This document shows, piece by piece, positions 1,318 to 50,612 of a stretch of DNA of 64,000 nucleotides. The notes beneath the pieces were generated by a model. The model saw nothing but the letters and a program-made list of their open reading frames with translations. It had not been told where the DNA came from and made no database searches. The first letter of the stretch is position 1, and each line of letters starts with the position of its first letter. The stretch spans positions 252,407 to 316,406 of the forward strand of contig CANRFV010000001.1 of assembly GCA_947629985.1 (NCBI GenBank), written 5' to 3'. A program made the position numbers and the translations under genes. The DNA comes from an uncultured Clostridia bacterium (GTDB lineage Bacteria > Bacillota > Clostridia > Christensenellales > CAG-314).

Positions 1318-3204
1318 TTACATACCTTTTTGCAGTTGTTCTTTGTTGTACTGCAACGTGTACAATTCGTAATAACGTCCTTTAAGCCGCAGCAATTCGT
1401 GATGGTTGCCTTGTTCGATTATTTCGCCGTCGGACACCACTATTATCTTGTCTGCGTGCTGAATTGTGGACAAACGGTGCGCAACTATCAGCATGGTGCC
1501 GATATTCATCATTTTAGTAAGGCTGTCTTGTATCAGCACTTCGGTTTCGGTATCGATGTTGGCTGTCGCCTCGTCCAAAATCATAACTTCGGGTTTGTGT
1601 ATTATCGTGCGCGCAAAGGACAGTAATTGACGCTGTCCCGCGGAAAAGTTGTTGCCGCGCTCACGCACTTCTTCGTCCAGACCGTGGCTCAACTTGTCGA
1701 TAAACTTGTCGGCATTTACATATTTGCACGCCTGCAATACCTGTTCGTCGCTGAACTCGTCCCGCAACACAATATTACTGCGTATTGTGCCGGCAAACAA
1801 AAATACATCTTGCAACATCTGCCCGAAATGCTTACGCAACGACGAGATTTTGATTTTTTTGATATTTATTCCGTCCAACAAAATTTCGCCTTGCTGAATG
1901 TCGTAATTTCGGCAGAGCAACGACAAAATAGTGGTTTTTCCGCTACCTGTGGCTCCCACAAACGCAACCGTTTCGTTGGCATTGATGTGAAAACTTACGT
2001 CTTTAAGTACCCACTCGCCCGGGTTGTAAGCAAACCACACATTTTTGAATTCGATTTCGCCGCGCACGCTGTCAAGTTCGATTGCGTCCGGCTCGTCCAC
2101 CACGTCGGGTTGAATGTCCATAATGGTAAATATCTTTTCGGCGGAGGCAAATGCCGACTGCAAACGGTGAAACTGCTCGGCAAGGTGCTGTATTGGGTTG
2201 AAAAATTTGCTTATAAACATATAAAACATAATTATCGTTTCACTGCTTATGCTTTGCCCGAACAACGTAATGTTGTCTATATAGCCCTTGCAACCCAAGA
2301 AAAACAAGCACAGAACAGATACGATGTACAGCAAGTATACCATCGGGCGGAATATTCCGAATACAAATATTTGTCCGCGTTGCGCTTGATATAATTTATC
2401 GTTTTTGGCGTTGAATTCGTCCATTTTGCGTTGTTCACGATTGAAAATTTGTATTATTTTCATTCCCGACAAATGCTCGGACAAATAAGTGTTGATGTCG
2501 GTCGTGCCGTTTTTTACCTGTCTGTATGCGCGACGCGAAAACTTGCGGAAAATTACGGTAAACAACACGATAAACGGCACAAAACACAACACCATCAACG
2601 TGAGCATATAGTTGATAAACAACATAGCCACCAACACGCCGATGATCAAAAAGATGTTCTTTACAAGATTTACCAACATTCCCGTAAACATCATCGATAT
2701 CGCGTTGGTATCGTTTGTAACGCGGGTTACCAATTTGCCGACGGGTATTTTGGACAGTTGCGCATGCGACAGGTTTTCGATATGCGTAAACGCGTCTTCG
2801 CGCAAGTGAGAAATTATTTTTTGCCCCGTTTTTTGCAAAATTATCGCCTGAACGTAGGTGCTTATAAGCGACACTACAAGTATGCTTGCATACACCGCAA
2901 CGCGCCACAATACGTCAGAGTACTCAAAAGAGCCGCCTTTTATTATTTCTTCGATATTGCCTATCAGTATGGGCGACAAGATGTCGTAAACAATGGACAG
3001 CAACATAACTGCGCCCACAATTACAAAGTTGAGCCAATACGGCCGCGCATATTTGAGCAAACGTCTCATCAGTTCGCCGTCCTTCATATTGCGGTCGAAG
3101 CCCATCGCTTCCTTTTTGTCTTTTACAAACGCGTAAGCCAAAATAAGCACCGCGCTTACCACGCCCACTATCGCGCCGACGATCAGTAACGGTAAATATT
3201 CCAT
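1318..3204 (-). CDS. ABC exporter, fused permease/ATPase (type I exporter half-transporter)
   Basis: 628 aa with an N-terminal 6-TM region. Walker A GATGSGKTT, signature FSAGQRQL, Walker B VMILDEATANID. Confidence 0.9.
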   Translation of the reverse strand: MEYLPLLIVGAIVGVVSAVLILAYAFVKDKKEAMGFDRNMKDGELMRRLLKYARPYWLNFVIVGAVMLLSIVYDILSPILIGNIEEIIKGGSFEYSDVLWRVAVYASILVVSLISTYVQAIILQKTGQKIISHLREDAFTHIENLSHAQLSKIPVGKLVTRVTNDTNAISMMFTGMLVNLVKNIFLIIGVLVAMLFINYMLTLMVLCFVPFIVLFTVIFRKFSRRAYRQVKNGTTDINTYLSEHLSGMKIIQIFNREQRKMDEFNAKNDKLYQAQRGQIFVFGIFRPMVYLLYIVSVLCLFFLGCKGYIDNITLFGQSISSETIIMFYMFISKFFNPIQHLAEQFHRLQSAFASAEKIFTIMDIQPDVVDEPDAIELDSVRGEIEFKNVWFAYNPGEWVLKDVSFHINANETVAFVGATGSGKTTILSLLCRNYDIQQGEILLDGINIKKIKISSLRKHFGQMLQDVFLFAGTIRSNIVLRDEFSDEQVLQACKYVNADKFIDKLSHGLDEEVRERGNNFSAGQRQLLSFARTIIHKPEVMILDEATANIDTETEVLIQDSLTKMMNIGTMLIVAHRLSTIQHADKIIVVSDGEIIEQGNHHELLRLKGRYYELYTLQYNKEQLQKGM

Positions 3205-15933: not shown

Positions 15934-16971
15934 ATGACAGAAAAACGCAAACACAAATTTAATTGGAAAATATTTTGCATAGTAATTGCAAGCATATTGT
16001 TGGTATATCTGGTAATTGCGCTGCTGCCCCGCCCGCAAAGCGTACAAAGCAATCCGTTTGTTATCGAAAAAGCCGCCAAACCGCTGTTGATTGCGCACGG
16101 CGGCGGCAACAGAGAATTTCCCGATAACACTTTGGAAGCGTGCTACAACGCGTACAGCGTGGACCCCGACGTAATGCTGGAAATGGACGTATCCATTACC
16201 AAGGACGATGTGGTTATTATGTCGCACGACACAACGCTGGATTACCGCACCAATGCCCGCGGAGAGATTGCCAAGTGGACCTACGCCGATTTGGTAGACC
16301 AACGCGTTGATTTCAGTTATCTCAACCGCATAGAAAACGGCGTTGTTGTGGAAGAAATAAAATACACCGATTACCAAGGCAAACAGGTTACTCCGCTTGA
16401 CGTGAATTATCCCCAAGGCGTGCATGCGCGCGACGATGAAATATTCCCCGTAACGCGGCTTGTAGACGTGTTGGAAACTTTCCCCCACAATACGGTAAAC
16501 GTGGAGATCAAGCAAAGCGGCGACACGGGACTCAGAGCGCTTGCCGCAGTAATTAAAATAGTAGAAGATCACGACGCTTTCGACCGCGTGGTGTTGGCGT
16601 CGTTCCACAAAGAAATTTACCAAGAACTTAAACACATAGCCCAAACTACGCATCCCGAACTGCTGTTTTCTCCGCAAAATTCGGGCGTGGCAAAGTTGTT
16701 TGTTACGGGAGCGCTTGCTTTGGACGTATTTTACGGCGAACCCGTTGCGGTATTTCAAATACCTATGAGTTACGAACTTGGCGGAATAAATTTGCACCTT
16801 GACCACAAATGGTTTGTAAAGGCGGCGCACAGGCACAACATTGCCGTACACTATTGGACAATTGACGACGTGGAAGATATGAAATACCTGGTTTCCATCG
16901 GCGCAGACGGCATTATGACCAACCTGCCGCACACGTTAAAACAAGTTTACGACGAGATGTTTGCAAAATAA
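15934..16971 (+). CDS. Membrane-anchored glycerophosphodiester phosphodiesterase
   Basis: 345 aa with an N-terminal TM segment. GDPD motifs HGG..EFPDNT and MSHD. Confidence 0.85.
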   Translation: MTEKRKHKFNWKIFCIVIASILLVYLVIALLPRPQSVQSNPFVIEKAAKPLLIAHGGGNREFPDNTLEACYNAYSVDPDVMLEMDVSITKDDVVIMSHDTTLDYRTNARGEIAKWTYADLVDQRVDFSYLNRIENGVVVEEIKYTDYQGKQVTPLDVNYPQGVHARDDEIFPVTRLVDVLETFPHNTVNVEIKQSGDTGLRALAAVIKIVEDHDAFDRVVLASFHKEIYQELKHIAQTTHPELLFSPQNSGVAKLFVTGALALDVFYGEPVAVFQIPMSYELGGINLHLDHKWFVKAAHRHNIAVHYWTIDDVEDMKYLVSIGADGIMTNLPHTLKQVYDEMFAK

Positions 16972-17150
16972 ACGCGCAAAGAAATGGCAATTTGCGAAAA
17001 CCGCATTGAAAAAGTGTGCGGTACAGCGATAAAATAATAAGATTGCTTGACGAAATAATGTTCATAAATGGAATAATGTTCGTAAATGGAAAAGGAAGGC
17101 GTAAAAACGTCTTCCTTTTCCGTTGCAACTATAAAGCGCTGTTGCCGCTA

Positions 17151-17285
17151 TGGTGCCGGTGATTTGGACAGAACCGACACGTTTTCTCCAACATCGGATT
17201 TTGAGTCCGACGCGTCTGCCCTTAGCCGAGCGAGCAATGCGAGCGAACGCCACGGAGCGTAAGCGTAGTATTCCACCACACCGAT
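17151..17285 (-). pseudogene. tRNA-Leu(CAA)-like copy with 49-nt D-loop insertion and degenerate T-arm
   Basis: Collinear with the intact gene but carries an insertion at 17221-17269. The 5' acceptor strand is ATCGGTG, and the T-arm has diverged to GTCGGTTCTGTCCAAAT. Confidence 0.6.
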
Positions 17286-17320
17286 ATAAAAAAACGCAAG
17301 CCGCTACGACTTGCGTTTTA

Positions 17321-17380
17321 TGGTGCGGTGAGACTTGTCCTTGCAAAGCAAGGTAAGCGAAGTAAAACGGAGCGCTACAT
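17321..17380 (-). ncRNA. Chimeric module + tRNA-Leu 3' fragment ending in CCA, with its own terminator (copy 1)
   Basis: Minus strand reads ATGTAGCGCTCCGTTTTACTTCGCTTACCTTGCTTTGCAAGGACAAGTCTCACCGCACCA. It is followed at 17286-17319 by an AAACGCAAG...CTTGCGTTTTTTT terminator. Expression has not been tested. Confidence 0.35.
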
Positions 17381-17483
17381 TATTTCGGTATCGCACACAC
17401 AAAAATCCAAAGGCAGCAATGGAAAAGGAAGGCGTAAAAACGTCTTCCTTTTCCATTGCAACTACAAAGCGCTGTTGCCGCTA

Positions 17484-17618
17484 TGGTGCTGGTGGTGGGA
17501 CTTGAACCCACACGTTGTCTCCAACATCGGATTTTGAGTCCGACGCGTCTGCCCTTAGCCGAGCGAGCAATGCGAGCGAACGCCACGGAGCGTAAGCGTA
17601 GTATTCCACCACACCGAT
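17484..17618 (-). pseudogene. tRNA-Leu(CAA)-like copy with 49-nt D-loop insertion
   Basis: Identical to the intact tRNA from the D-loop GG to CCA. Insertion at 17554-17602 lies between AAT and GGCAGA. The 5' acceptor strand ATCGGTG mispairs at 3 of 7 positions. Confidence 0.65.
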
Positions 17619-17653
17619 ATAAAAAAACGCAAGCCGCTACGACTTGCGTTTTA

Positions 17654-17713
17654 TGGTGCGGTGAGACTTGTCCTTGCAAAGCAAGGTAAGCGAAGTAAAA
17701 CGGAGCGCTACAT
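17654..17713 (-). ncRNA. Chimeric module + tRNA-Leu 3' fragment ending in CCA, with its own terminator (copy 2)
   Basis: Same sequence as 17321-17380, one repeat unit later. Terminator at 17619-17652. Confidence 0.35.
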
Positions 17714-17816
17714 TATTTCGGTATCGCACACACAAAAATCCAAAGGCAGCAATGGAAAAGGAAGGCGTAAAAACGTCTTCCTTTTCCATTGCAACTACAA
17801 AGCGCTGTTGCCGCTA

Positions 17817-17902
17817 TGGTGCTGGTGGTGGGACTTGAACCCACACGTTGTCTCCAACATCGGATTTTGAGTCCGACGCGTCTGCCATTCCACCACACCA
17901 GC
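17817..17902 (-). tRNA. tRNA-Leu (anticodon CAA), class II, CCA encoded
   Basis: Hand-folded. Acceptor GCTGGTG/CACCAGC; anticodon arm TCGGA-CTCAAAA-TCCGA; long variable arm GTTG-GAGA-CAAC; T-arm GTGGG-TTCAAGT-CCCAC; discriminator A plus CCA. Confidence 0.9.
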
Positions 17903-17915
17903 ACAATGCTTATAT

Positions 17916-17944
17916 AATATATCACAAAAACTCGGTTTTATCAA
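17916..17944 (-). promoter_or_regulatory. tRNA-Leu promoter
   Basis: Minus strand reads TTGATA-17 nt-TGATATATT (extended -10), ending 13 nt before the tRNA 5' end. Confidence 0.55.
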
Positions 17945-17999
17945 CAATTTTACACTCATTTGTAAAAATTTTTTGCTAAATTCATTGCCGCTAAAAATC

Positions 18000-18028
18000 T
18001 TGCGCTTATTGTTGCCGTGTGATATAAT
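18000..18028 (+). promoter_or_regulatory. tRNA-Arg promoter (divergent from the tRNA-Leu promoter)
   Basis: TTGCGC-17 nt-TGATATAAT (extended -10), about 27 nt before the tRNA 5' end. Confidence 0.55.
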
Positions 18029-18054
18029 ATGTACGCAAATTAAATTTCAAATGC

Positions 18055-18130
18055 CTATCCGTAGTCTAATTGGATAAAATTGTGCCCTCCGACGGCATCG
18101 TTTCGGGTTCGAGTCCCGACGGGTAGACCA
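18055..18130 (+). tRNA. tRNA-Arg (anticodon CCG), CCA encoded
   Basis: Hand-folded. Acceptor CTATCCG/CGGGTAG (one G-U pair); anticodon arm GTGCC-CTCCGAC-GGCAT; T-arm TCGGG-TTCGAGT-CCCGA. The D-stem has one C-A mismatch. Confidence 0.8.
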
Positions 18131-18245
18131 TTGTCGTACTACGCCTTGTAGTCGCATCCGAACGGCGCGCCCTTTGCGGCGTGCCTTTTCGTTTGTTCCT
18201 TATGGCTTGTACGCCAATTCGCCTTTCCGCCGTGAGAACGAAATA

Positions 18246-18375
18246 ATGTAGCGCTCCGTTTTACTTCGCTTACCGAGTTTTCTCGGACGAGTCCCGACGG
18301 GTAGACCATTGTCGTACTACGCCTTGTAGTCGCATCCGATCGGCGCGCCTTTTGCGGCGTGCCTTTTCGTTTGTT
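18246..18375 (+). repeat. Module + duplicated 3' end of tRNA-Arg plus trailer and terminator
   Basis: 18246-18288 is ATGTAGCGCTCCGTTTTACTTCGCTTACCGAGTTTTCTCGGAC. 18288-18375 repeats 18110-18197 (T-loop C56 to CCA plus the 67-nt trailer) with 2 substitutions. Confidence 0.85.
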
Positions 18376-18397
18376 TGTTTTGGTAGGGGTGCCACAA

Positions 18398-18439
18398 CAA
18401 AAAAAGCGGCTTTACTGCACCATTTACAGCAAAGCCGCT
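18398..18439 (-). terminator. Rho-independent terminator after the antiporter operon
   Basis: 13-bp stem AGCGGCTTTGCTG/CAGTAAAGCCGCT followed by T7 on the minus strand. Confidence 0.7.
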
Positions 18440-49089: not shown

Positions 49090-49303
49090 TTGTACACCTC
49101 GGCATAATTGTAACAGACCGGAACGCGTATTGTCAAACTATTGCGGGGCGGCGTGCGCGCAATAGGAAAAAAATCGTAAAAAAAGCCGTAACGTTACGTC
49201 AATATTGCGCAAATAGCCGCAAAAAAGCGTGCAAGCGCAAATTTACGCAGTGCGACAGCGCCGGCTACGAGCAATAAATATTGCGCGGATTGCGTAATTG
49301 CAG

Positions 49304-49332
49304 TTGACAAATGCGAAATAAAGTTTTATACT
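49304..49332 (+). promoter_or_regulatory. tRNA-Gln promoter
   Basis: TTGACA-17 nt-TATACT, ending 11 nt before the tRNA 5' end. Confidence 0.6.
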
Positions 49333-49343
49333 ATCAATGATAT

Positions 49344-49418
49344 TGGGGTATCGCCAAGCGGTAAGGCAACGGATTCTGACTCCGTCATCCGCAGGTTCAA
49401 ATCCTGCTACCCTAGCCA
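49344..49418 (+). tRNA. tRNA-Gln (anticodon CTG), CCA encoded
   Basis: Hand-folded. Acceptor TGGGGTA/TACCCTA with U1-A72; anticodon arm ACGGA-TTCTGAC-TCCGT; T-arm GCAGG-TTCAAAT-CCTGC; discriminator G plus CCA. Confidence 0.9.
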
Positions 49419-49536
49419 AGCGGGCAACTGCGCTTTTGGTTGCAACGGAAAGGAAGCACTTTTGGGTGCTCCCTTTTCCTTTGCTGTCCTTTTGCTTGTT
49501 GCCCTTTTCTGTCGTGTAGACAGGACAGTTTGAATT

Positions 49537-49684
49537 ATGTAGCACTCCACTGCGTTTCGTTTACCTTGCGCTTCGCTTAGGACAAATCCTGCTACCCTAG
49601 CCAAGCGGGCAACTGCGCTTTTGGTTGCAACGGAAAGGAAGCACTTTTCAGTGCTCCCTTTTCCTTTGCTGTCCTTTTGCTTGT
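49537..49684 (+). repeat. Module + duplicated 3' end of tRNA-Gln plus trailer (copy 2)
   Basis: 49537-49583 is ATGTAGCACTCCACTGCGTTTCGTTTACCTTGCGCTTCGCTTAGGAC. 49583-49684 repeats 49398-49499 (T-loop C56 to CCA plus the two trailer hairpins). Confidence 0.85.
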
Positions 49685-49826
49685 ACACCATATAAGTCAA
49701 TATCATAACTTGCGGGGCCCCCAATAAGACGTAGCGCAGCAGTCTTGTTGGGGAGAGGAGCAACCGCCCGACAGCGGTACCGTCTGCGCTTGCACAGGCG
49801 AGGCTGTCATAGCGCGAGTTGCGACG

Positions 49827-49953
49827 ATGTAGCACTCCACTGCGTTTCGTTTACCTTGCGCTTCGCTTAGGACAAATCCTGCTACCCTAGCCAAGCGGGC
49901 AACTGCGCTTTTGGTTGCAACGGAAAGGAAGCACTTTTCAGTGCTTCCTTTTC
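49827..49953 (+). repeat. Module + duplicated 3' end of tRNA-Gln plus trailer (copy 3)
   Basis: Same module at 49827-49873. 49873-49953 again repeats the tRNA-Gln 3' end and trailer. Confidence 0.85.
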
Positions 49954-49988
49954 GTTTATATTGAACTATATTGTACTATATTACAAAT

Positions 49989-50612
49989 TTAATCGGGGTC
50001 GCATACGTCGCCGAAAGTGCGAATTACGACGTTTACCGTATCGTAGCCGTAACCGCGGTACAACAAATAACGTTGAAGTTTTTGCAATGTTTTGACGTCT
50101 GCCGTTTTGCCGCGCATATACTTTTGCGCAAGGGCGCTTGCGTTGTTGAGCGCTTGGTCGCCGTCCATTTGCGAATATTCGTCGGCGCGCGTTACGGATA
50201 TGCCCTTGCCGATAAGTTCCTGCCTTATTCGGCGCGAACCTTTTGTGGCGCTGTTTTGGCGGGCGTACATCTGGGCGTACGCGTCGTCGTCGAGATAGCG
50301 CAACTGTTTCAGACGGTCGATGGCGTAATCCACTGTCTGCGCGGTATATCCTTTGCGCGTGAGATAATCGCGCATTTGCTTGCAGGTTTTGCTTGCGCGA
50401 GACAAATAATCGATTGCGCGCTGCAAAGCCATCGAACGTTCGCTATCCGCAATTGCCTGCTGCAATTTGGCTGCGGATACGTCCTGTCCTATCTTCAAAC
50501 CCAACTTCATTACCGTTACCATTTCCAGAGCAAAAGCGTACTCGCCATCCACGTATATGTTGGCGCGGGTCTTGTTGTTTTTTTGAATTTGCATATCGGT
50601 AATTTTGGGCAT
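49989..50612 (-). CDS. recX: RecA regulator RecX
   Basis: 207 aa from the internal ATG (MPKITDMQ). Three-repeat helical RecX pattern (ALQRAIDYLS, YLTRKGY, LRYLDD..YA). Confidence 0.8.
   Translation of the reverse strand: MPKITDMQIQKNNKTRANIYVDGEYAFALEMVTVMKLGLKIGQDVSAAKLQQAIADSERSMALQRAIDYLSRASKTCKQMRDYLTRKGYTAQTVDYAIDRLKQLRYLDDDAYAQMYARQNSATKGSRRIRQELIGKGISVTRADEYSQMDGDQALNNASALAQKYMRGKTADVKTLQKLQRYLLYRGYGYDTVNVVIRTFGDVCDPD

Follow-up and report, generated by a model that had tools for sequence, protein, structure and literature searches.

The locus examined here lies in a window of 64,000 nt taken from a short-read metagenome-assembled genome (MAG; 157 contigs, 3.3% contamination) and consists of a tandem array built around tRNA-Leu(CAA) (17085-17886; period 333, 2.4 copies and 97% matches according to TRF). 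This call confirms the exact 333-bp period given in a preliminary description of the region, and the coordinates and collinearity assigned there to the array, the intact gene and the two distal copies proved correct to the base (Table 1). Outside the array, an ORF that ends near 16971 is a putative glycerophosphodiester phosphodiesterase-like gene. tRNA-Leu(CAA) is called intact at only one place in the array, by both ARAGORN and Rfam, and the only predicted promoter-like site of the array stands directly upstream of it. The middle and outer copies that follow are interrupted in the D-loop, exactly between ..GGTGGAAT and GGCAGA.. in each case, by one and the same 49-nt string, as had been noted (ACTACGCTTACGCTCCGTGGCGTTCGCTCGCATTGCTCGCTCGGCTAAG in tRNA sense; module B hereafter), and each is accompanied by a copy of a second module, A. 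We consider it likely that the locus comprises a single expressed tRNA-Leu(CAA) gene with two dead copies behind it, and that three separate DNA-level processes have shaped it.

Table 1. Features of the tRNA-Leu(CAA) array and its flank, in window positions
Feature	Position	Strand	Remarks
tRNA-Leu positions 18-76, outer copy, ..CACCGGCACCA	17151-17220	-	T-arm and acceptor strand decayed
Module B, 49-nt insert, outer copy	17221-17269	-	identical to middle copy
Module A, copy 1	17314-17417	-	core 17338-17380
tRNA-Leu positions 18-76, middle copy	17484-17553	-	100% identical to intact gene
36-nt stretch identical in all three copies	17518-17553	-	putative unequal-crossover site, from the spread of 12 differences
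Module B, 49-nt insert, middle copy	17554-17602	-	identical to outer copy
5' piece of disrupted tRNA-Leu copy, ATCGGTGTGGTGGAAT, positions 1-17	17603-17618	-	second copy 17270-17285
Terminator 2	17621-17652	-	second copy 17288-17319
Module A, copy 2	17647-17750	-	core ATGTAGCGCTCC...hairpin...GGA at 17671-17713; nhmmer; R1 68 bits
Displaced, decayed old tRNA-Leu 3' end, CAAGTCTCACCGCACCA, C56 to CCA	17654-17670	-	second copy 17321-17337
Trailer 1 (initial part of A cassette), bearing a long hairpin	17754-17816	-	repeats at 17421-17483 and 17088-17150
Intact tRNA-Leu(CAA), class II, CCA encoded	17817-17902	-	ARAGORN; Rfam RF00005, 58.1 bits
Promoter-like site TTGATA-17-TATATT with TG	17916-17944	-	directly upstream of intact gene
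Divergent tRNA-Arg(CCG)	18055-18130	+	syntenic across genus
A cassette of tRNA-Arg(CCG)	18201-18311		3' of tRNA-Arg(CCG); duplicated 3' end from about 18288

Condition of the disrupted tRNA-Leu copies

The earlier view of the distal copies as disrupted, non-functional genes is borne out by several features. No promoter-like site of their own was found for them in the array, and the start of each lies directly behind a predicted intrinsic terminator. Both have the ATCGGTG previously reported as their 5' acceptor strand, and in the middle copy two mismatches would interrupt the acceptor stem (ATCGGTG vs CACCAGC). The decay ascribed to the outer T-arm is real as well: of the 12 differences that separate the outer copy from the middle one, 10 fall in the T-arm and the 3' acceptor strand. 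Damage to the orthologous B-disrupted copies varies between relatives: that of G018, which at this locus is the closest relative, is cut within the T-loop at GGGTT, that of G008 is without positions 1-7 and that of G004 without the anticodon arm, and in five species the site is empty. In silico removal of the 49-nt insert makes both distal copies detectable again as tRNA-Leu(CAA). Judged from their sequence, the two are pseudogenes. At the other loci examined, an intact gene likewise stands beside the B-interrupted copy. In G008 and G007 the intact gene has a trailer that resembles terminator 2 by eye, though unscored; terminator 2 is thus probably the Leu gene's ancestral trailer.

The B and A module families

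Module B belongs to a family of 40-55-nt, non-coding sequences with the ends ACT...CTRAG and the internal order ACT, small hairpin, GTGGCGTTCGC, variable hairpin, GCTCGGCTRAG. The strict pattern is found in 35 of the 47 genomes (species) of the genus, with zero control matches, and the family extends to other gut Clostridia, including the cultured Pumilibacter (the 5' core is present 14-16 times per genome). B follows a simple target rule: it lies just after WAT and usually before a purine, the 5' flank ending in GAAT, AAAT, TAAT, CTAT, GTAT or TTAT (about 40 copies). Insertion is clean, without target duplication, and the two flanks, once joined, give exactly the uninterrupted sequence in the Leu, Met, Thr-like and Arg copies; this also applies to one copy inside module A, at GAAAT^AACGTAGC. 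B is seen in tRNA loops as well as in other (non-tRNA) hairpins and in repeats; relative to the tRNA, it is antisense in the copies at Arg(ACG), Met and Ser(TGA). The proposal that the element is joined to tRNA sequence at a GG does not hold as a rule, since B also occurs at tRNA positions 5/6, 8/9 and 34/35 and in non-tRNA hairpins.

Because of this clean insertion after WAT, in either orientation and at varied sites, we interpret B as a DNA-level micro-element rather than an intron, and it is by all appearances a discrete DNA element. Of its distinct central segments, 28 of 51 form a stem of 4 bp or more, with many different sequences, and the mean central stem measures 3.9 bp vs 2.5 in shuffles (maximum 3.1, 1000 shuffles); the copy at the Leu locus belongs to a subfamily without the central hairpin. 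Such a hairpin, conserved in structure, suggests that B passes through a single-stranded DNA intermediate. We infer from its distribution that B is mobile. No pair of filled and empty sites was caught within one species, and no full-length gene-carrying form was seen among about 70 inspected copies. An autonomous long form was also sought through unpaired 5' or 3' halves, which were not found in the source genome or among 20 Pumilibacter sites. Reverse-transcriptase stops at modified bases were ruled out as the origin of the junction positions, because these track the DNA motif WAT^R on either strand and not modification sites. Taken together, B looks like a widespread, previously undescribed family of tiny hairpin-bearing insertion elements.

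Module A forms part of a structured cassette of about 185 nt, made of a new C56-to-CCA segment, a structured trailer and the module itself. Its covariance model (R1) matches 42 of the 47 genus genomes and none of 117 other genera of the order. The cassette accompanies 13 or more tRNA species and bears the 3' end that matches each of them, and the A core begins a constant 115-125 nt past the CCA in at least 13 tRNA species. In a structure test, 91% of cells were paired vs 77% in shuffles (slid controls, at most 58%), and 78 cells had changes on both sides vs 23 in shuffles. At the junction, GGGA|C56, T54-T55 are replaced by A, and the C56-to-CCA copies behind each A module constitute direct repeats of the tRNA 3' end that bound the units. 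The displaced old 3' end of the Leu gene reads CAAGTCCCAACACCGGCACCA in the G018 orthologue, and an unrelated simple terminator follows the displaced fragment in most A loci. Neither module has a match in Rfam (whole window at gathering thresholds; 17000-18400 at E up to 10; 49300-50200 at E up to 1). Several origins of A were considered and set aside. A degenerate 5' tRNA part is one of them: only the 8-mer TGTAGCGC is common to A and tRNA-Pro D-arms, and this was judged to be chance. A phage parent of the A unit found no match in a phage collection or among viral contigs. The end of an inovirus-like prophage, present in the tRNA-Met of G010 together with a T-loop-targeting tyrosine integrase, was ruled out, as this prophage has different arm repeats (TGTGTGTCAAA) and keeps GGTT at its junction.

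The 49-nt insert had been regarded as a member of the same family as the T-loop module (module A here), but A and B are separate elements, B having its own ends, its own target rule and a wider distribution. The alignment of the insert with the module at the Gln locus, on which that idea was based, stands weakly above chance in pairwise comparison (z about 3, p about 0.005) and fails from consensus to consensus (p about 0.11). The nhmmer profile of module A does not pick up the B insert in a genome-wide search, and it finds nothing in a direct comparison with a 96-nt excerpt, a sequence that is perhaps too short for nhmmer. Sequence homology between A and B thus appears weak and statistically insecure; what they have in common is an architecture of conserved single-stranded blocks around a variable hairpin.

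The searches for TnpB, for Y1 transposases and for neighbouring integrases found no enzyme for B or A. The one clear match to TnpB (PF07282) is in the source genome, and a further 5 of the 47 genomes give weak ones. As this partner is essentially absent from the genus, we rejected a guide-RNA role, whether for a TnpB/Cas12-like guide with a co-resident nuclease gene or for the A scaffold as a reRNA-like guide whose 3' segment matches the tRNA end. Y1 transposases (PF01797) are encoded in 20 of the 47 genomes vs 35 for B, many B carriers being without one, and the resident 714-bp IS200-like copies have ends unrelated to B; mobilisation by IS200/IS605 was rejected on these grounds and retained as the closest analogy. 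Neither the array nor any other A unit inspected contains an integrase or recombinase or has one alongside.

Origin of the tandem repeat

Amplification of a disrupted unit had been left unexplained in the preliminary description. The differences between copies follow the pattern expected of one unequal crossover between the intact gene and a downstream disrupted copy. Identity is 100% between the intact gene and the middle copy over 17754-17886, and likewise between the middle and outer copies over 236 nt; all 12 differences between the latter two are confined to 17455-17517, where the middle copy has the intact-gene version. The middle copy combines parts of both neighbours in a mosaic such as unequal homologous recombination would leave; the switch lies inside shared sequence, and the differences all fall on one side of the 36-nt stretch. 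G018 has the same architecture with a single unit. The tandem repeat therefore looks like the product of one recent unequal crossover. As to the order of events, B would have inserted after WAT into the D-loop of a downstream duplicate of tRNA-Leu(CAA), which would require a trans-acting enzyme; the genus-specific A cassette would then have entered the live gene at the T-loop and taken the place of its 3' end, pushing the old 3' end and the old terminator downstream; and the 333-bp interval would finally have been duplicated when the live gene recombined unequally with the disrupted copy, or replication slipped between them, within 17518-17553.

A site-specific origin of the stack would dispense with homologous exchange: the B-interrupted Leu copy would be the attP-like site of a small, gene-less, circular element of the cis-mobilisable kind (CIME-like), with B and A as arm modules of such elements, and the live gene would have undergone repeated integrase-mediated integration. 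Tandem cassette stacks do exist at many tRNAs (three at Pro(GGG), two at Gln, six 87-bp units at Arg(ACG) and five at Ser(TGA)), and the intact Leu gene and the B copy of G016 are separated by a 3.8-kb restriction-modification island. T-loop-targeting tyrosine integrases occur in the genus, as seen in the G010 prophage, and the source genome has 15 tyrosine-recombinase matches; Williams is said to have described the T-loop sublocation of tyrosine integrases in 2002. We nevertheless regard this origin as unlikely, given that the differences between copies are exactly those which one homologous exchange predicts, that clean entry into non-tRNA hairpins, repeats and module A is not expected of an att arm, and that double-stranded arm sites are not expected to have covarying hairpins. 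The true integrase event in G010, with GGTT preserved, also contrasts with the GGGA|C56 junction of A. An assembly artefact would account for the array differently, with a single real disrupted copy and a middle copy created as a false path by strain heterogeneity or repeat resolution. The middle copy is wholly identical to sequence elsewhere in the array (its left 236 nt to the outer copy, its right 133 nt to the intact gene), so a strain mixture could mimic it. The fragmentation and contamination of the MAG and the single unit of G018 are compatible with this, as is the fact that several contigs of the source assembly end in or beside A or B modules, repeats which may thus contribute to contig breaks in MAG assembly. 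However, joining B (end at 17554) to an intact-type T-arm (first discriminating base at 17517) requires reads with both, so that at least one type of molecule with this combination exists, and like arrays are found at other tRNAs and in other genomes; we hold an artefact to be quite improbable.

Least credible to us is a role at the RNA level, in which the 49-nt segment would be removed or tolerated, and the distal copies would yield functional tRNA-Leu or a tRNA-like RNA and represent a new bacterial class of introns or intervening sequences. The structure of B is conserved with compensatory changes, the middle copy has an undamaged tRNA sequence from G18 through CCA, and a variable-arm insert in relatives also shows a compensatory change (TTCGTC/GACGAA vs TTCGCC/GGCGAA). 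Such a role is nonetheless highly improbable in view of the antisense copies of B and those in non-tRNA DNA, of distal copies that lie behind terminators without a promoter and whose acceptor stem is mismatched, of the incompatible truncations among relatives, and of a live tRNA-Leu(CAA) that is uninterrupted by B in 11 of 11 genomes inspected. The initial judgement that the insert is not an intron is upheld both by the two orientations of B relative to the tRNA and by an Rfam search in which, at E up to 10, no family of introns or ribozymes was matched. Group I tRNA introns of bacteria occupy the anticodon loop, exceed 200 nt and have a P1-P9 core, whereas this insert has 49 nt and lies in the D-loop. 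An archaeal-type bulge-helix-bulge intron would have a fixed sense within a transcribed, functional gene, which does not agree with antisense copies, promoterless hosts and a live gene free of B.

Significance and comparison with known systems

Our preferred reading remains one live gene followed by relics produced at the DNA level. As a tentative generalization, Christensenellales-like gut Clostridia may carry undescribed, gene-less micro-elements that target hairpin loops, chiefly those of tRNA genes, B inserting precisely after WAT and A swapping in a matching 3' end and trailer at the T-loop, both being moved, through an intermediate of single-stranded DNA or of RNA, by an enzyme that has so far escaped classification as a transposase or recombinase. 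If so, the tRNA genes of these bacteria would be continually re-tailed and duplicated, with spare copies being inactivated. Loci of this kind should be annotated as one live tRNA gene plus relics, not as intron-containing or split bacterial tRNAs. To our knowledge, B is among the smallest apparently mobile elements; it combines a simple target rule with conserved single-stranded motifs, and its presence in the cultured Pumilibacter muris and P. intestinalis makes mechanism and enzyme open to experiment. P. muris CLA-AA-M08, for one, carries tRNA-Met copies interrupted by B. The A cassette has strong structural covariation, yet acts like DNA that replaces 3' ends at more than 12 tRNA species in one genus, a combination that is explained neither by classical integrase att sites nor by known RNA families.

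A disrupted tRNA copy whose function is supplied by a second, intact isoacceptor copy is reminiscent of tRNA-dependent lysogeny, in which a phage integrase disrupts the resident tRNA and the phage itself supplies the replacement (Guerrero-Bustamante and Hatfull 2024, PMC10865867); the Leu locus, however, has neither phage nor integrase, and what interrupts the copy there is a 49-nt element. Disrupted tRNA genes of archaea, with introns at non-canonical positions and tRNA fragments from mobile elements (Sugahara et al. 2012, PMC3293823), resemble the locus in their short inserts in D-, T- or anticodon loops, their scattered fragments and recombination with mobile DNA. Those inserts reside in functional genes and are spliced by EndA via a bulge-helix-bulge, whereas B has a bacterial host, occurs in both orientations and was encountered in redundant or partial copies alone. 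Accretion of integrative elements and CIMEs, as well as tycheposons (bioRxiv 10.1101/2020.12.28.424599), shares with the Leu locus direct repeats of the tRNA 3' end from the T-loop, gene-less units stacked behind an intact tRNA gene and islands at the same site in relatives. Direct 3'-end repeats thus bound the units here as in CIME-like accretion, but no associated tyrosine or serine recombinase was found in the array or the A units inspected. The A cassette further differs from these elements in its fixed length, its RNA-like covariation, its range of tRNA species with matching 3' ends and its T54-T55 to A replacement, with no GGTT-containing common core.

For B, the nearest counterparts are the IS200/IS605-derived palindrome-associated transposable elements (PATEs) and the REP/REPIN sequences, which are moved by Y1 HUH transposases. 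No cognate Y1 transposase with matching element ends was found for B. In IS608-type ends the hairpin itself is recognised by the transposase, whereas in B the hairpin sequence is free to vary and the single-stranded linkers are conserved; the subterminal hairpin expected of PATEs and MITEs is present in 28 of 51 B variants, is not conserved in sequence and is absent from the Leu-locus copy. At 40-55 nt, B is apparently smaller than any PATE known to us. The resemblance lies in very small, non-coding units with internal hairpins, without target-site duplication or clear terminal inverted repeats, inserted directly 3' of a short conserved motif (WAT for B) in an orientation set by the target strand, and in targets that are often hairpin loops, consistent with single-stranded DNA.

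Architecture and origin of the tRNA-Leu(CAA) array

The 49-nt D-loop insert of the tRNA-Leu(CAA) array and the T-loop module, referred to here as modules B and A respectively, each represent an undescribed family of structured elements; both families are lineage-wide, gene-less and centred on tRNA genes. The observation holds, and all the coordinates given for the array in the preliminary description were correct. Read in tRNA sense, a promoter-like site is followed by the intact gene, trailer 1 with a long hairpin, a spacer, module A (ATGTAGCGCTCC..TTCGCTTACC, hairpin TTGCTTTGCAAGG, then A), a decayed tRNA-Leu 3' end (C56 to CCA) and a second terminator; then come ATCGGTGTGGTGGAAT, the 49-nt insert, and GGCAGA with the remaining tRNA up to CCA, after which trailer 1 recurs and the unit repeats.

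Positions of the features in the window and of related loci (C2, C5, C7 and C142, contigs of the source genome, a MAG; G008, G010 and G016, genomes of relatives in the genus)
Feature	Position	Strand	Remarks
18-bp tandem repeat	17054-17091		AATAATGTTCATAAATGG, 2.1 copies; adjoins outer end of array
Tandem array	17085-17886		333-bp period, 2.4 copies, 97% matches (Tandem Repeats Finder)
Outer disrupted copy	17151-17285	-	
Insert in outer copy	17221-17269		
Terminator before outer copy	17319-17291		intrinsic, with T-run
Middle disrupted copy	17484-17618	-	
Insert in middle copy	17554-17602		same sequence as in outer copy
Terminator before middle copy	17652-17624		intrinsic, with T-run
Intact tRNA-Leu(CAA)	17817-17902	-	class II, sole intact one of array (ARAGORN and Rfam)
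Promoter-like site	17944-17916	-	only one on tRNA strand; upstream of intact gene
tRNA-Arg(CCG)	18055-18130		divergent to Leu gene (ARAGORN and Rfam)
A cassette of tRNA-Arg(CCG)	18131-18375		trailer, module A (18201-18311), duplicated C56-to-CCA, trailer's first ~68 nt again
Two A cassettes after tRNA-Gln(CTG)	49344-49960		unequal length
Recurring Gln(CTG) extension	C7:300-440; C5:135700-135900		
tRNA-Arg(ACG) units	C2:105400-106400		
Partial tRNA-Ile(GAT) copies	C142:2040-2340, 2560-2700		
Leu island, G016	G016:C20:69800-74600		locus L043
Leu island, G008	G008:C10:24000-31000		locus L044
Prophage, G010	G010:C22:12000-24732		locus L081

In silico removal of the insert is sufficient for both distal copies to be detected again as tRNA-Leu(CAA). 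They were rightly described at the outset as disrupted genes: neither has a promoter of its own, a terminator directly precedes each, and in the middle copy the 5' strand ATCGGTG would mispair with its 3' strand at 1:72 and 3:70. Both are to all appearance dead.

The Leu(CAA)/Arg(CCG) gene pair keeps its synteny across the genus, and the live Leu(CAA) gene is uninterrupted in 11 of 11 genomes. Downstream of it, the site is empty in five species (a terminator, then genes); G018 has the architecture of the source genome, with its B copy cut at T-loop GGGTT, and the B copy of G008 lacks positions 1-7 and has a second insert, with two hairpins, in its variable arm. Three copies with a replaced anticodon arm are found in G004, and in G011 copies flank the live gene, one upstream and two downstream. 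A 3.8-kb island separates the live gene from the B copy in G016; its two ORFs are a candidate restriction-modification pair (translations read by eye). In G008, genes for a fucosidase and for a protein of 1077 aa, whose match to NPHP3_N (NTPase) is weak and below threshold, lie downstream of Leu(CAA), and at the island terminus an A core is joined to a tRNA-Arg(CCG) 3' fragment, inverted relative to the Arg gene. The site is an island hot spot in these two genomes.

The amplification of a disrupted unit had been called unexplained; the mosaic of differences between the Leu copies now offers an account. From G18 to the end of trailer 1, the intact gene shows 100% identity to the middle copy (17754-17886 versus 17421-17553), as does the middle copy to the outer one across 236 nt (17518-17753 versus 17185-17420). 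Of the middle-outer differences, 12 of 12 fall within 17455-17517, a stretch in which the middle copy agrees with the intact gene. Such a mosaic would be expected from a single unequal exchange that involved the live gene and the downstream disrupted copy, placed by the differences inside their common 36-nt segment (17518-17553); the 333-bp period would be the distance separating the two homologous segments. This applies to the tandem as assembled in a short-read MAG, in which a second strain with a gene-converted disrupted copy could give the same assembly path, but even then some molecule has to carry B joined to a T-arm of the intact type.

Module A and the tRNA 3' end

Searches with an nhmmer profile and with a covariance model recovered 17-18 copies of module A in the source genome; the order's 117 other genera had no match, as against 42 of the 47 genus genomes. 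In ~25 of 30 sampled loci, the core begins at a constant 115-125 nt past the CCA of an intact tRNA, namely Met, Leu(AAG), Leu(CAA), Gln, Ser(CGA), Ser(TGA), Glu(CTC), Pro(CGG), Pro(GGG), Thr(CGT), Ile, Arg(CCG) or Val(TAC), and each core is followed by 'A' and a copy of the same tRNA's own C56-to-CCA segment. The whole unit, ~185 nt, is structured: bases directly 3' of CCA pair with bases ~80 nt downstream in a helix, P1 (for example GGCGAC/GTCGCC, GGGCAAC/GTTGCCC, GGGCGGAC/GTCCGCCC, GCAGGC/GCCTGC), which encloses a long hairpin, and a variable hairpin stands at the end of A. Across 24 units, 91% of cells are paired versus 77% in shuffles and at most 58% in slid controls, and both sides changed in 78 cells versus 23. 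An unrelated simple terminator comes next after the displaced 3' fragment in most loci, so that the unit, made up of a new 3' end, a structured trailer and module A, looks like a cassette substituted for the native 3' end at T55/C56. The displaced fragment and terminator 2 of the Leu locus resemble, by eye, intact-gene trailers in two relatives (G008, G007).

The Arg(CCG) cassette and the neighbouring Leu array have an identical A core despite their divergent genes. The second Gln(CTG) cassette has a different upstream extension of ~130 nt (GGGGCCCCCAATAAGACGTAGCGCAGCAGTCTTGTTGGGG...), which looks structured, has no Rfam match and recurs elsewhere in the source genome. A third module type, ~30 nt (GTGCAACATTGGCGACGCAGTCGTCAAATAA), replaces the anticodon loop in the partial tRNA-Ile(GAT) copies.

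Module B and its insertion sites

We assign the 49-nt insert to a family of its own, with the consensus ACT, small hairpin, (C)GTGGCGTTCGC, variable hairpin and GCTCGGCT(A/G)AG. A stem of 4-7 bp is closed in 28 of 51 distinct central segments, by many different sequences (mean 3.9 bp versus 2.5 in shuffles; maximum 3.1, 1000 shuffles); the Leu-array copy belongs to a subfamily with a direct repeat of TTCGCTC instead of the hairpin. A strict pattern (GTGGCGTTCGC-N4-30-CTCGGCTRAG) occurs in 35 of 47 genus genomes, with zero control matches, and at no fewer than 117 loci of the species-representative collection. Among the matches listed are Christensenellaceae-labelled MAGs, Ca. Protoclostridium and the cultured Pumilibacter muris and P. 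intestinalis; Pumilibacter genomes each hold 14-16 copies of the 5' core versus 1-3 control matches.

In the source genome, relatives of the insert interrupt copies or fragments of Leu(CAG), Leu(TAA) and a Thr-like fragment, and are found within the Met anticodon, in five Ser(TGA) units and between positions 5 and 6 of Arg(ACG) in six tandem units of 87 bp. These last flank tRNA-Arg(ACG), each consisting of promoter, GCGCC, B in antisense and tRNA positions 6-26. Another full-length Arg(ACG) copy there, the second, carries B and a 41-nt hairpin-bearing insert replacing T-loop TTCGA.

Sites of module B insertion (^)
Host	Site
Leu	GGTGGAAT^GGCAGA
Met, antisense	GGGTTAT^GAGCCC
	CTACTAT^GGCTCAG
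Arg, antisense	GAGCTAAT^GGCGC
Otherwise normal A module (G049)	GTCCGAAAT^AACGTAGCG
Loop of non-tRNA hairpin (Ca. Protoclostridium)	CCTCTCCTGAT^GGTTAGGAGAGG
Mostly within another repeat (Pumilibacter)	CTCGCAAT^GACA

The flanks rejoin exactly to uninterrupted sequence, with neither duplication nor deletion; the 5' flank ends in WAT, a purine is usually next, the site is often a hairpin loop, and B may be sense or antisense to the tRNA. On the evidence of sequence, B behaves like inserted DNA and not like an intron. A new intron class is unsupported because no intron could lie antisense in the gene that hosts it, and the antisense copies and non-tRNA targets bear out the initial view that the insert is no intron. 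In P. muris and P. intestinalis (loci L292-L311), most B copies lie inside an abundant repeat (..GGGATTGC-hairpin-CTCGCAAT^GACA.., partner GTCATTGCGAGG) that looks like a separate MITE-like family.

The preliminary description had placed insert and T-loop module in the same element family, which is not supported. What the two have in common is confined to GCTCC and TTCGCT blocks (pairwise z ~3; consensus versus consensus p ~0.11), and we thus treat A and B as alike in architecture but without demonstrated homology.

Mobility and known systems

No integrase, transposase or reverse transcriptase was found in or beside the Leu array, TnpB is essentially absent from the 47 genus genomes, and there was no match in Rfam, the phage collection or viral contigs. 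Y1 transposases occur in 20 of these 47 genomes, the ends of their 714-bp IS copies being unrelated to B. A genuine integrase event is seen in G010, where an ~11.5-kb inovirus-like prophage (tyrosine integrase, Bro-N, Cro/C1 repressor, Zot-like ATPase, G2P-like Rep) occupies the tRNA-Met T-loop, between the tRNA and the resident A unit and upstream of the latter. Unlike the A junction, its junction keeps GGTTCAAATCC, and the prophage has arm repeats TGTGTGTCAAA at both ends. For B, the closest working analogy would be the HUH 'peel and paste' single-stranded-DNA chemistry of IS200/IS605 and REP/RAYT, a likeness short of family membership, because B combines precise insertion adjoining a short motif, absence of target duplication, hairpins of conserved structure and a preference for hairpin-loop targets.
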